IMG/VR virus record: IMGVR_UViG_3300025096_000009
Span: 15,618 to 79,617 of that record
DNA length: 64,000 bases
Strand: one strand, 5' to 3'
DNA from: a virus
The translations under genes and the position numbers were made by a program. Position 1 is the first letter of the stretch, and every line of letters begins with the position of its first letter. A model generated the notes under the pieces. It worked only from the letters and a program-made list of their open reading frames with translations. It was not told the DNA's origin and ran no database searches. Positions 26,998 to 57,997 of this stretch are shown here, in pieces.

Positions 26998-27045
26998 GGG
27001 TTTGTGACAGATAGAATCAGTATAGAAGTTAAGCTTAAATAGACA

Positions 27046-27672
27046 ATGGGTAGGAAGTCACCTCCACCACCACAGGTTATAATGCCTCCACCACCGCCAC
27101 CTTCGACGATTGTGACGGATGTGACTCCTACGGAGACATACCAGGATGCAACGGATTATTTAAGACGTTTAGATGCACGTGAAGAAGCAATCGAGAAAAG
27201 AAGGTGGGATGCTGGAGAAACTCCTGGGAATATAAGATCCTCTCATGCAGCTATTAATTTACGAAATGCTGAATTAGCAAATAATTTAGATCGTGGATCT
27301 TCATTCCCTGGAACACCTAATTTTGGATCTCAGACTAATCCAGGACTAATGTCTGGTACAGGTGCTGTTATGAGTACTTTAGGTACAGGTGCTAATACTG
27401 GTAGTACTAGTAGACAAGCACGAATTAGACCAGATCAAATGTCACCTACTGCTCAGGCAGCTGCTGTTACTGGACCTGAGGCTCGTCTTGCTAATGCTCA
27501 AAAAGCCTATTGGTTAGCGGAGCAACAGAAGAACAATGAGCAGTTTTCTTATCCTGATTTTGAAGAGCCTTCATGGGCTGATCGTGACTGGTATCCAGTT
27601 GTTGATAAATGGAAAGAACGGAGCGATAAAATTGAAGTAGATGACTCTCCACCTAGAGTAGTTTCTATGTAA
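27046..27672 (+). CDS. Polyproline N-terminal protein (candidate internal virion protein)
   Basis: MGRKSPPPPQVIMPPPPPP; own TAGAAT box; inserted against the local strand. Confidence 0.6.
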   Translation: MGRKSPPPPQVIMPPPPPPSTIVTDVTPTETYQDATDYLRRLDAREEAIEKRRWDAGETPGNIRSSHAAINLRNAELANNLDRGSSFPGTPNFGSQTNPGLMSGTGAVMSTLGTGANTGSTSRQARIRPDQMSPTAQAAAVTGPEARLANAQKAYWLAEQQKNNEQFSYPDFEEPSWADRDWYPVVDKWKERSDKIEVDDSPPRVVSM

Positions 27673-51268: not shown

Positions 51269-52360
51269 ATGGGCACAGCCATTCAGCAGCGGGAGCAAGA
51301 ATCCGCGCTGCTACAGGGATGGCCGCAGTTCACTGATTGGGTTACATCTACAAACAACCGTCTCTACGTGGGATGGTTTGGTGTATTAATGATTCCCTGT
51401 CTTTTGACGGCGGCAACCTGTTTTATTATTGCTTTTATAGCTGCTCCTCCTGTTGATATTGACGGGATTCGTGAACCAGTCGCAGGATCTCTTCTCTATG
51501 GAAACAACATCATCTCAGGAGCAATCGTACCAAGCTCGAACGCCATCGGCATGCATTTTTACCCAATATGGGAAGCTGCGTCGCTTGATGAGTGGCTCTA
51601 CAACGGAGGGCCTTATCAACTCGTCATCTTCCACTTCCTCATTGGTATCGCTGCTTACATGGGACGACAATGGGAACTTAGCTATAGATTAGGAATGCGC
51701 CCTTGGATTTGTGTTGCTTATTCAGCACCAGTCTCAGCCGCATTTGCAATCTTCTTAATTTATCCGTTTGGTCAGGGAAGTTTTTCTGACGGTATGCCTC
51801 TAGGTATATCCGGTACATTTAACTTTATGTTTGTCTTTCAGGCAGAACATAATATTCTTATGCATCCATTCCACATGTTGGGTGTAATAGGCATGTTTGG
51901 TGGGGCTTTGTTTTCCGCTATGCATGGTTCTTTGGTCACTTCTTCCATTATTCGAGAGACTACAGATTCTGAGTCTCAAAATTATGGATATAAGTTTGGC
52001 CAAGAGGAAGAAACTTATAACATCGTTGCAGCGCACGGTTATTTTGGACGTTTAATCTTCCAATATGCCAGCTTCAACAACAGCCGGTCTCTTCACTTCT
52101 TCCTCGCTGCGTTTCCTGTTGTATGCGTTTGGTTCACTTCAATGGGAGTTTCAACTATGGCGTTCAATTTGAATGGTTTTAATTTTAACCAGTCAATTGT
52201 TTCTGCCGATGGAAAAGTGGTACCTACTTGGGCAGATGTTCTTAACCGAGCAAACCTAGGTATGGAAGTTATGCACGAGCGTAATGCTCACAACTTCCCA
52301 CTTGATTTAGCAGCTGCTGAGACATCTGAAGTTGCGCTTATTGCTCCGGCAATAGGTTGA
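51269..52360 (+). CDS. psbA: Photosystem II D1 protein
   Basis: [46 protein letters not shown]. Confidence 0.99.
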
Positions 52361-55812: not shown

Positions 55813-57237
55813 TTAGAGATATCCCTGCCAGCTATTGGATCCGGATTGTCCTCTACTGCTACCTTTATCTGTATTTAAGAATGAATAGTCACCTGTTAAA
55901 AGAGCCTGTCTTTCTGCATCACTTGAGAGTCCACTTGTATTAGATCCTCCAGGAACATTACTACGGCGTTCAGGTCTATTAGAACTTCCATATTGACTTG
56001 GTCTACCTTCATTAGGACTACCACCAAAGGTAGATCTACGTCTGCCAGTTCTTTCTCTACCTAAGGATCTACCTCTTTCGTCAAAACGACTTCTTAAGGT
56101 GTCATATTCGCCACCTCTTGTGTCATATCGACCTTGTAGTTCGCCATATTTACCTTGGAGATTGCCATAATCTGCATAGGTTTTATCATATTTACTTTGT
56201 AGTTCTCCATGTCTACCTCTTAGAGCATCAAATCTGGTACTTCTTTCGTCATACCGACCTTGTAGTTTTCCATGTCTACCCCTTAGATCATCTAATCTGG
56301 TACCTCTGTCTTGATACTGACCTTGGAGATCATCATATCTGGTACCTCTTTCTTTGTACTGACCTTGTAGGTCGCCATATTGACTTTGTAGGTCACCATA
56401 TTTGGTTGATTGGGTATCATATTGTCCCTGCAAGGTTCCATACTTTTTGTTGAACTCTTCTTGTGTTGCTGCTGCCTTCTTGTCGGCTTCACTTTGCCAC
56501 GTTCCTTTAGCTGTATCTAACCTGGTGCCATACCGTTTTTCAGCTTGATCATGCCAACCAGTTCTAGCTTCGCCTAAACGTGCATCATACCTAGCATCAG
56601 CTGCTGTTCTCCATTCACCTCTGGCAGTTTTTAGTCTGTCATCATAGAGATTACGCTGTTCGTTGATGTATTCAGCTTTTCTCTGTCCTTCTTGTGCAGT
56701 CCAGAGGTCTCTTTGACCAGCTAAGCGTGTATCATATTTGGCTTCACGCTCAGTGTGCCATCCTTTCTTTAGCTCATCTACTTCTTTTTGAGTATATGTT
56801 TTTGGAGGAGGAGGAGGAGGTGAACCGCCGCCGCCTTTATTATGTAGTAGTACTAGTTCATCACTTAAGACATAAGTATGAGCACCATTAACGGTTAATT
56901 CAATAGATTCCCCTGTACCAAGCTTTTCAGAACCCTCAACTTCTACTTCACCTTCTAATTTAGATATCTTATCTCCTTTTTTGAGGTCAGTTGCCTTTAA
57001 CCAGCTGCTTTTTGCAGGTGAATAAAATACATCTTCTTCTGAACAATTAAATGTCTTACCTGATAGCTTAAGAGCTAATAAGGGAGATTCAATAACTCTT
57101 ACGTAAGTTACCTCATGTTCACCACGTTCAAGAGTATGCTGATGGAGAGTATCTAGCTTATCTCCTACTTCTATTTCTCTAGCAGGTTTAGTTGTTCCTC
57201 CTGCTAAGAGGATTTCCATATCAGGTATGTGACCCAT
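55813..57237 (-). CDS. Hint-domain (intein-like) autoprocessing protein fused to a repeat coiled coil
   Basis: 'EILLAGG..KPAREIEVGD', 'WLKATDLKKGD', 'ELTVNGAHTYV...LLHN|K'; then polyPro, 19-aa repeats and about 18 heptads. Confidence 0.8.
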   Translation of the reverse strand: MGHIPDMEILLAGGTTKPAREIEVGDKLDTLHQHTLERGEHEVTYVRVIESPLLALKLSGKTFNCSEEDVFYSPAKSSWLKATDLKKGDKISKLEGEVEVEGSEKLGTGESIELTVNGAHTYVLSDELVLLHNKGGGGSPPPPPPKTYTQKEVDELKKGWHTEREAKYDTRLAGQRDLWTAQEGQRKAEYINEQRNLYDDRLKTARGEWRTAADARYDARLGEARTGWHDQAEKRYGTRLDTAKGTWQSEADKKAAATQEEFNKKYGTLQGQYDTQSTKYGDLQSQYGDLQGQYKERGTRYDDLQGQYQDRGTRLDDLRGRHGKLQGRYDERSTRFDALRGRHGELQSKYDKTYADYGNLQGKYGELQGRYDTRGGEYDTLRSRFDERGRSLGRERTGRRRSTFGGSPNEGRPSQYGSSNRPERRSNVPGGSNTSGLSSDAERQALLTGDYSFLNTDKGSSRGQSGSNSWQGYL

Positions 57238-57292
57238 GGTCTTACTTAAGGTTATTGTCTTTATCGATTCTATCGGTACTAATTATTTAGGT

Positions 57293-57997
57293 TTAGCGTC
57301 TATTCAAAATTGCCATCATTAAGTCTCTGCCTAAGCTTCGGGTAGGAGATGTATTTACACCTCTTCTAGTTCTAGTGCTTCTTTCTCTTCTCTGTCCAGG
57401 ACCTCTTTGATAACGATCATCGGTTCGATCTCCATCACTATCAATGAAATCTGCAGTACCAATGGTTCCAGGCTCCCAGTCTATTCTTTCACCCCATCGT
57501 CCTTCACTTGGACTACTACGTATTGGTTGAATAGTTACTTCTCTTTCTTTTGGCATTTCAGTTTCACGCCAATCTCCATAGACAGGTTGAATACTTACTT
57601 CTTTTTCTTTTCTAGGTAGTTGTCTTTCACGCCAATCTACCCCTTCTTTCTTTGCTTGATCTGCAAGTTCTCTAGCTCTTTCTCTACGCTGTTCTTTTTC
57701 TGTAGCCATATACTGATAGTCTCTTTGACCTTGTTTAAAGCCAGGTTTATCGGGTTTCCATGCATCGGGTTTCCAGTCTCCTTCTCTTGGTAGAGTTACT
57801 ACTACGTCTGATCCACCCCAATCATCTCTATCCCATGGACGAACATACTCTTGAGGAACATAATCTGAACGTCCTAGATCCCATTCAATATCATCATGGA
57901 TAGATGGTTTTTTATCAGATATTAATCTAGGCATGCCTCCTGTCAACGAGTCAGGCTCATAAATACTTAGATCAGTTCCAGGCGCGAATCTTGACAT
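57293..57997 (-). CDS. Disordered R/D/E/W-rich protein with short repeats
   Basis: EV(S/T)IQP twice, WKPD repeats, DSDGDRTDD. Confidence 0.55.
   Translation of the reverse strand: MSRFAPGTDLSIYEPDSLTGGMPRLISDKKPSIHDDIEWDLGRSDYVPQEYVRPWDRDDWGGSDVVVTLPREGDWKPDAWKPDKPGFKQGQRDYQYMATEKEQRRERARELADQAKKEGVDWRERQLPRKEKEVSIQPVYGDWRETEMPKEREVTIQPIRSSPSEGRWGERIDWEPGTIGTADFIDSDGDRTDDRYQRGPGQRRERSTRTRRGVNTSPTRSLGRDLMMAILNRR

Follow-up and report, generated by a model that had tools for sequence, protein, structure and literature searches.

An optional, probably self-removing Hint domain placed directly after the initiator methionine of a viral protein

In a 64,000-nucleotide stretch of viral DNA (the window; bases 15618-79617 of the 79.6-kb IMG/VR virus record IMGVR_UViG_3300025096_000009, which is rated 93% complete), one gene, here called gene A, encodes a protein that starts with a Hint domain and continues with a flexible linker and a basic, helical, repetitive part (the passenger). 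We interpret this Hint as an optional N-terminal cassette that is shuffled between phage genes, would remove itself by cleavage at its C-terminal end and would have no required role for the passenger, a reading to which we assign a probability of about 0.68. Self-cleavage of the gene A Hint, taken by itself, is very probable. The gene had been singled out from the letters alone (the original prediction), and the proposed open reading frame (ORF) is real and lies on the minus strand: the protein gives a 100% self-match in the genome, and its orthologs reach E-values of 1e-196.

Residues 1-133 resemble Hint domains in both sequence and predicted structure. The Pfam family PT-HINT (PF07591) matches residues 19-133 with an E-value of 9e-6 and 26.4 bits by hmmscan, and with 29.6 bits in a six-frame search of the genome, compared with the curated gathering threshold of 27.7 bits; homologs of the gene A Hint score 27.5-27.7 bits. 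Among sequences in the PDB, the first 141 residues match the bacterial intein-like (BIL) domain of Clostridium thermocellum (2LWY, E 2e-5) and the Hint of 8W20. An AlphaFold (AF2) model built from a 44-sequence alignment is all-beta, with a predicted local distance difference test score (pLDDT) of 89.5 and a predicted template modelling score (pTM) of 0.81. A Foldseek search with this model returned 61 PDB matches at E ≤ 1e-3, and the listed top ones are all BIL, intein or Hedgehog HINT structures. The top BIL and mini-intein structures have template modelling (TM) scores of 0.76-0.83; they include 2LWY (0.83, root-mean-square deviation 2.2 Å), Tetrahymena BUBL BIL2 (0.82) and mini-inteins from DnaB, gp41-1 and RecA. 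As modelled, residues 1-133 are a genuine HINT fold, and the fold match without which the original prediction would have fallen was thus found. The domain is acidic, with an isoelectric point (pI) of 5.0, and its base composition is not foreign-looking (GC 0.37 vs 0.40 for the genome).

The catalytic residues of this Hint were assigned by alignment with 2LWY and with complete relatives. Four IMG/VR contigs contain such a relative (36% identity) inside proteins of 1761-1764 residues, which read ..GCPDPNTLILLSDG...CSTSHKF...AHTY...LSHN↓K (the arrow marks the junction) followed by a Pro-rich stretch. Gly2 of gene A aligns with Cys1 of these proteins and of 2LWY, and the Thr and His positions of block B are occupied by Ser66 and Asp69 (S66-E-E-D69). 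The block F His is His120 (AHTY), the terminal His132-Asn133 pair aligns with the terminal HN of 2LWY, and the +1 residue is Lys134. A search of 1.84 billion representative proteins found 1143 relatives, and residues were compared in 172 proteins comprising the window's own, the gene A homologs and the best 150 of the 1143 representative hits. Among 120 internal Hints, Cys1 is present in 114, the block B His in all 120, the equivalents of His120, His132 and Asn133 in 115, 119 and 118, respectively, and Lys at +1 in 63. The 29 N-terminal forms in which Asp stands in for the block B His lack both Cys1 and that His without exception, and all of them retain His120, His132 and Asn133; the +1 residue is Lys in 28 and Gly in one. 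The absence of a Cys/Ser nucleophile and of the block B His, with an intact HN followed by Lys, had been noticed in the window and proved to be general in this group. The 29 cluster representatives group as a single clade (support 0.997) inside a larger one of 121 members, mostly HN↓K Hints (support 0.958), which points to a single loss of the N-junction residues in an ancestor whose Hint already was, or came to be, N-terminal.

The degenerate Hint is not a decaying remnant. Pairwise ratios of nonsynonymous to synonymous substitution rates (dN/dS) are 0.04-0.23 for the Hint at dS up to 1.3, and 0.07-0.57 for the passenger. The Hint is at least as constrained as the passenger; it is a folded, selected unit maintained under purifying selection. 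The missing Cys1 and block B His, the C-junction residues retained in 29 of 29 forms and the low dN/dS agree with the earlier proposal of a Hint apparently fitted only for C-terminal cleavage.

The start of the gene leaves no room for an N-extein, because an in-frame TAA lies 15 codons upstream of the ATG of gene A with no ATG, GTG or TTG between them; the domain thus starts at the initiator, as had been proposed. The preceding gene stops 55 nt upstream in a different frame. The same arrangement is found at every Hint-bearing locus, with in-frame stops 5-15 codons upstream and no start codon between.

A search of 5.8 billion protein clusters divided the relatives of gene A into classes with and without the Hint. 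Twenty-one ortholog clusters (the window's own included) carry it and read MG(G)HIPDMEILLAGG...LLHN↓KGGGGSPPPPPPKTYTQ, 15 clusters of 269-320 residues are Hint-less (MGRKKKRSPAPPPAKTYTQ), and five have the same Hint on a different passenger. The Hint-less orthologs, for which a search had been suggested, begin MGR/K..SPPPPKTYTQ, exactly where the post-HN sequence begins. In 30 metagenome loci with a conserved gene order (113-aa gene, 234-aa gene, gene A, 92-aa gene, onward to psbA), the Hint is present on gene A in six and absent in 24. Hint-less alleles turn up in the same marine samples, and also between almost identical flanking genes: at locus L011, the flanking genes are 96-100% identical to those of the window at the protein level (97.4% at the nucleotide level over 2.4 kb), yet gene A has no Hint and begins MGRGRSSPPPPPPKTYTQ. 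Both kinds of allele share a leader of about 30 nt (TAAATAATTAGTxCxGATAGAATCAAT) and the following ATGGG. They differ by 396 nt, or 132 codons, corresponding exactly to Gly2-Asn133, inserted between the leader with ATGGG and the Gly/polyPro codons. Past this indel the linker aligns one-to-one with the MGRGRRSSPPP.. starts of Hint-less orthologs, K-G-G-G-G-S-P pairing with G-R-G-R-R-S-S. The Hint is therefore optional, and the idea of a required pro-domain is contradicted by the 24 loci without it.

The same Hint is also found on a second, otherwise unrelated gene. Gene B of the window, which is Hint-less here, encodes a protein beginning MGRKSPPPPQVIMPPPPPP that is 70% identical (E 1e-97) to the passenger of P0038, one of the proteins of the second passenger type (P0037-41, P0046). 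Its ortholog clusters bear the Hint in 14 of 76 cases, and in the IMG/VR loci L044-L050 the Hint follows directly after the ATGGGT of gene B, behind a leader (gtgaCAGATAGAATCAgtatagaa..aagtagtacaATGGGT) nearly equal to that of the window's Hint-less gene B. The proteins of genes A and B have in common a start of the form MG-basic-SPPPP. In the tree of Hints, those of gene B nest within those of gene A, so the passenger was swapped when Cys1 and the block B His had already been lost, and HN↓K was retained through the swap. The motif C[AC]GATAGAATC[AG] has only two matches in the window (up to one mismatch), both before the ATGGGT of genes A and B. Two matches are not significant by count, as 32 of 100 shuffles reach two, and the pair is striking by position rather than by number. 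Across divergent metagenome loci, the leader is better conserved than the coding sequence next to it and may for this reason be a lineage-specific promoter or translation signal. A scan for sigma-70 promoters and terminators around gene A gave nothing above shuffled expectation. The ORF upstream of gene A (57293-57997) was tested as a relative of the second passenger type and is unrelated.

A third family, represented by P0049 and here called family C, has an N-terminal Hint that usually keeps its nucleophile. These proteins of 458-559 residues begin MAC, MTC or MGC and retain the block B His; their Hint closes with SHN↓KG, and a polyPro stretch comes next. The passenger shows homology to a protein of about 296 residues beginning MGG(S/K)K..PPPP, which is matched by more than 1000 clusters, among them a protein of Synechococcus phage S-EIV1 (89% identity). 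Of the 27 Hint-bearing clusters found in the best 120 hits, four have replaced the Cys by Phe or Val (MAF, MAV) and kept HN↓KG. This independent loss of Cys with retention of the rest is a sign that the N-terminal nucleophile may be dispensable, and the C-terminal junction not, once the N-extein consists of Met and one residue. In all three families the Hint-less proteins begin with MG and the Hint-bearing ones read HN↓K-G, and therefore cleavage would leave the normal protein with one extra Lys. The domain is modular: besides the gene A protein it caps two other unrelated ones, so that at least three protein families of this phage lineage carry it. In L040 and S-EIV1, the family C gene is located within the cluster just upstream of the terminase, before a small-terminase-like gene. 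In L042, the same position (G000:C1:8557-9804, upstream of the window) is occupied by a gene for a 415-residue protein made up mostly of tandem repeats of about 20 residues (..RQTQAERYAGERGL..).

We read the gene A Hint as a cap capable of C-terminal cleavage only because its N-junction residues are lost, its C-junction residues are invariant, the sequence after the junction equals the Hint-less N-terminus and a flexible Gly/Pro linker follows; cleavage, the transfer route and any benefit to the phage are what we infer. The cassette sits directly after the initiator Met of a phage protein which in most relatives starts with MG-(R/K)n-SPPPP. With no N-extein to release, this lineage has lost its N-junction machinery (Cys1 to Gly, block B His to Asp) and kept the C-junction residues His120, His132 and Asn133. 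After folding, the side chain of Asn133 would attack its own peptide carbonyl and form a succinimide, and the Asn133-Lys134 bond would break to give an acidic Hint of 14.6 kDa and a basic passenger of 38.8 kDa beginning KGGGGSPPPPPP. Ordinary divergence aside, the released passenger would correspond to the Met-processed Hint-less protein with one additional N-terminal Lys. In characterized domains, the penultimate His and the block F His assist the terminal Asn in forming a succinimide, a reaction that severs the peptide bond after it, and type A BILs, which have a His-Asn end and no +1 nucleophile, give mostly cleavage products (PMC4031507). Engineered N-terminal mini-inteins free their passenger in vivo by C-terminal cleavage (PMC10127266), and references given there, Mathys 1999 and Qi 2011 among them, report C-cleavage both without an N-terminal nucleophile and without motif A. 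Transfer of the cassette probably proceeds by homologous recombination at the flanks of genes A and B, since at least these two genes carry it within the S-EIV1-like lineage and they share the 5' leader and the MG-basic-polyPro start.

Several points weigh against this interpretation. The case for cleavage is made by comparing sequences, and the +1 residue at the putative junction is Lys. The block B His aids coupling or Asn cyclisation in some inteins, and its replacement by Asp could therefore slow or abolish cleavage. HN and His120 could, in principle, instead have been conserved for structural reasons. No homing endonuclease or other mobility gene is attached to the Hint, so its description as mobile follows from its distribution and the shared flanks. 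Finally, persistence of the Hint in about 20-50% of allele clusters hints at some benefit that the reading as a dispensable cassette leaves unnamed.

Such a benefit is central to a different explanation, in which the Hint cleaves itself off and yet is kept because it is useful to the phage. It could keep the passenger soluble or inactive until folded, time its release, standardise translation initiation or expose an N-terminal Lys, which is a secondary N-degron in bacteria with Leu/Phe-tRNA-protein transferase. Strong purifying selection across the whole Hint, the high share of alleles with a Hint (21 of the 36 clusters for gene A, 14 of the 76 for gene B), the Lys kept at +1 in 28 of 29 forms and the opposite charges of the acidic Hint and the basic passenger (pI 9.5) are all compatible with an adaptive pro-domain, and engineered N-terminal cleaving inteins serve as expression ramps (PMC10127266). 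However, Hint-less alleles are common, also amid near-identical flanking genes, and passenger function therefore needs no Hint. Moreover, three unrelated passengers bear the domain, and selection for cleavage is equally expected of a harmless parasite that needs to get out of the way. We consider an adaptive pro-domain unlikely, although it is the chief competitor of the cassette reading.

Less likely still is a Hint which has fully lost catalysis and stays on as a structural or binding module of the helical protein. The comparative nature of the case for cleavage and the disappearance of two classic catalytic positions, Cys1 and the block B His, would fit such a module. However, the losses are confined to N-junction residues, whereas the C-junction is invariant even through the passenger swap; the sequence after HN↓K matches the Hint-less N-terminus residue for residue and includes a disordered Gly4-Pro6 linker; and family C repeats the pattern with an independent loss of Cys1 only. 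An annotation artefact, with the true start elsewhere (an upstream N-extein, or a passenger translated without the Hint), is very improbable. Three homolog clusters are annotated as starting from another in-frame ATG, at codon 7 (MEILL), but a protein starting at Met7 would still have an N-terminal Hint without an extein. The upstream stops at every Hint-bearing locus exclude other starts there, Hint and passenger are read in a single open frame whose dN/dS is well below 1, and the passenger contains no Met and so cannot be made separately from an internal ATG. In addition, contigs identical to the window bridge the Hint/passenger junction in two public DNA runs.

An extension of the optional self-removing cassette can be offered tentatively. 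The gene A domain may represent a new intein-like element, a "start-codon Hint", which would colonise the Met-Gly starts of genes with the shared leader and MG-basic-polyPro start, spread by recombination during co-infection and stay silent through Asn cyclisation alone. Silence of this kind would permit repeated decay of the nucleophile, in families A and B (together with the block B His) and independently in family C (Cys to Phe or Val). A still bolder version would have the invariant Lys, once it forms the new N-terminus, serve as a conditional N-degron or maturation timer of the released protein.

The gene A Hint shares features with several known systems and differs from each of them. Type A BILs (Amitai 2003; Dassa 2004; Aranko 2013, PDB 2LWY; summarised in PMC4031507) have the same HINT fold and terminal His-Asn without Cys, Ser or Thr at +1, are expected to cleave rather than splice, contain no homing endonuclease and occur in variable proteins. 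However, BILs are internal domains with a thioester-forming Cys, and the N-terminal Cys or Ser of the canonical domain has no counterpart in the gene A Hint, which starts at residue 2 with Gly, has no N-extein and belongs to a clade without a single Cys1 among 29 members. With Cys1 replaced by Gly and the block B His by Asp, only the Asn-cyclisation half of BIL chemistry can remain. PT-HINT is the best Pfam match for the gene A Hint, but PT-HINT domains (8W20 is an example) lie deep inside giant secreted toxins, between a secretion or filament region and the C-terminal toxin with an immunity gene close by, keep Cys1 and TxxH and are usually followed by a small residue and Cys (HN-x-C), whereas the gene A Hint is N-terminal in a phage protein without a toxin or immunity context and its score straddles the gathering threshold. 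In work on polymorphic toxins, Zhang et al. in 2012 are said to have proposed that the pretoxin HINT releases what lies C-terminal to it.

Class 1 mini-inteins (Ssp and Npu DnaB, gp41-1; 1MI8, 4O1R, 6QAZ) resemble the gene A Hint in fold (TM 0.75-0.81), in the terminal HN and block F His and in presence/absence polymorphism at a precise site in orthologous genes. In contrast to them, the gene A Hint has no N-extein, no Cys1, no block B TxxH (S66-E-E-D69) and no +1 nucleophile, so it cannot splice, and it is inserted at a protein start instead of in a conserved active-site motif. C-cleaving inteins have been engineered into N-terminal self-removing tags of the IMPACT/pTWIN type. The Ssp DnaB and DnaX "SIGER" ramps (PMC10127266) are likewise N-terminal, have a disabled nucleophile and release their passenger in vivo by Asn cyclisation, the chemistry expected of the gene A Hint, but they are man-made from true inteins, whereas the gene A Hint is natural, evolved and polymorphic in phage genomes.

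The closest natural relatives (35-48% identity) are complete Hints of marine viruses with the pattern CPxPxM...CSxxHKF...DAHTY...LSHN↓K (L002-L005, L053-L063; P0047-P0189). They share the HN↓K junction, the Pro-rich linker after it, GEHEVTYV and other family motifs with gene A, but are internal, with 100-1700 residues in front of them, and retain both Cys1 and the block B His. In two of the 1761-1764-residue proteins (L002:2905-8190 and L004:9635-14929), the complete HN↓K Hint lies some 120 residues into the chain. These proteins directly follow a 1344-residue protein whose N-terminus, judged by eye, is phage-structural-like, and are likely to be self-processing large virion proteins. In L053, the same complete Hint is located at residue 1696 of a 2920-residue ORF. 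The very basic protein P0051 (489 residues) has two complete tandem Hints, each reading Cys1...SHN↓K, with Arg/Lys-rich linkers between and flanking them, and may be a polyprotein cut up by its own Hints.

Our literature search found no paper describing the complete marine viral Hints, a natural N-terminal, N-extein-less Hint restricted to C-cleavage, or any Hint in S-EIV1-like cyanophages. Hint domains are otherwise classed as inteins (splicing), Hedgehog (cholesterol transfer) and BIL or PT-HINT domains (internal cleavage). New here are the layout, the precise insertion polymorphism between Met and Gly, which recurs in three gene families, and the naturally occurring loss of the catalytic residues of the N-terminal junction.

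Table 1. Positions of gene A, its parts, gene B and the shared leader motif in the window
Feature	Position	Strand	Basis or remark
Gene A, whole: N-terminal Hint, linker and helical repeat passenger, 474 aa	55813..57237	minus	ORF list
Degenerate type-A BIL-like Hint, residues 1-133	56839..57237	minus	Pfam, PDB, AF2, relatives; Gly2-Asn133 is the 396-nt indel
Predicted scissile junction and disordered linker: Lys134 (+1), GGGG, S, PPPPPP, KT	56797..56838	minus	pLDDT <50 for residues 135-147
Four helical 19-aa Y-x-x-R-L-x6-W repeats, residues 168-255 (starts 168, 198, 217, 236)	56473..56736	minus	
18 heptads, Y(G/D)xL(Q/R)Gx alternating with YxxRGxx, residues 266-391, predicted long helix	56065..56442	minus	
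Basic disordered Arg/Gly-rich tail, pI 10.8, ending SW..YL	55816..56064	minus	
Conserved C-terminal motif GLSSDAERQALLTGDYSFL, residues 436-454	55876-55932	minus	
Leader motif CCGATAGAATCG, within the ~30-nt conserved leader	57265..57276	minus	27 nt before ATGGGT of gene A
Same leader motif CAGATAGAATCA	27008..27019	plus	26 nt before ATGGGT of gene B
Gene B (P0190, 208 aa, MGRKSPPPP..), Hint-less here	27046..27672	plus	tblastn

The passenger of gene A has all the parts listed in the original prediction, namely the linker, four 19-residue repeats, 18 heptads and a disordered tail with its motif (Table 1). In the full-length model, the Hint is followed by the disordered residues 135-147, long helices at 150-266 and 281-403, a disordered segment at 404-438 and a short helix on the C-terminal motif. 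W179, R171 and Y168 of the repeats are invariant among orthologs. The heptads, starting at residue 266, follow a Y/F/H/L-x-x-L/R pattern; their number varies widely among orthologs (alignment columns 300-500), and nucleotide identity to L011 falls in this block, where length varies through repeat gain and loss. The C-terminal motif also ends other proteins in related loci, and its LLTG occurs once in the genome, with no second copy. Some relatives have one gene more in the interval from the 234-aa gene to gene A (L028:890-2302; in L020, the end of the gene preceding gene A); its product is mostly unrelated to gene A, yet ends with the gene A motif (GLATDEDRYSTLTGK...DWRKYL; NRGLSSDRDRISMLTGRW). 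The same ending is found in P0042 and P0043 (about 490 residues), and the motif resembles a docking or targeting peptide that these proteins have in common.

Homology of the passenger to coiled-coil or tape-measure proteins was rejected, as the weak Pfam and PHROGs matches and the ESM Atlas look-alikes (TM < 0.45) were judged compositional; the "chromosome segregation ATPase" label on some Hint-less orthologs is a coiled-coil mislabel of the same kind. No toxin domain was matched in the passenger in Pfam, PHROGs or the ESM Atlas structure search. The earlier suggestion of an ejected or needle-like fibre finds no support here, and nothing found assigns the passenger to the virion.

Public metagenomes provide further observations on the two alleles. 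The DNA runs confirm the existence of the fused gene in its assembled form, and no RNA run was among those listed. Contigs of four marine metagenomes (X1-X4) include none that cleanly skips the Hint, and an apparent 123-nt skip at 57073-57197 was traced to a divergent relative aligned in short pieces. A Hint joined to a gene-B-type leader co-occurs in the same four samples. Over window positions 57016-57227 in these runs, the contig graphs are interrupted on either side of the Hint, at about 57227 and at 56807-56854. The loose contig end at 57227 (taaattaaagtagtacaATGGGTGTCCGCG) consists of the leader and the start of a P0045-type gene B Hint allele, and in run X1 it is deeper than the window's own strain (41.5 vs 16.8).

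The virus record encodes psbA (51269-52360), a family A DNA polymerase, a primase, tail-fibre genes, a major head protein and a large terminase. Its 752-residue portal-region structural protein has a sole match among 50,697 cultured phage records, to S-EIV1 (52% identity over 97% of the length), and the source virus is therefore placed, by this protein, as a marine, psbA-carrying member of the S-EIV1-like cyanophage lineage. S-EIV1 is a polar freshwater cyanophage. Exactly one Hint is present in the genome of the record and in a complete 80,952-bp relative, which has direct terminal repeats. The whole gene A protein, the Hint alone and gene B had no tblastn matches in the 50,697 cultured-phage records, and scans of IMG/VR gave no gene A orthologs, nor any for P0041 alone. 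The earlier remark on the distance of gene A from the structural block, said to be far, holds only loosely: its neighbours are small unknown ORFs and psbA, and no gene recognisable as structural adjoins it.

The gene A Hint would be a natural counterpart of the biotechnological self-removing intein tags made by mutating Cys1. The comparison can be read as a mutagenesis experiment done by nature, in which shrinking the N-extein to Met, or Met and one residue, appears to have made Cys1 and, in one lineage, the block B His dispensable, with His-Asn and the block F His remaining invariant. A small (133 aa), Cys-free and presumably fast-cleaving Hint is also a candidate tag. The use of the same Met-Gly site in three unrelated families raises the question of how Hints free of endonucleases move, and whether they are parasites or regulators. 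For the S-EIV1-like cyanophages, a lineage that is almost unannotated, this is a first piece of functional information.

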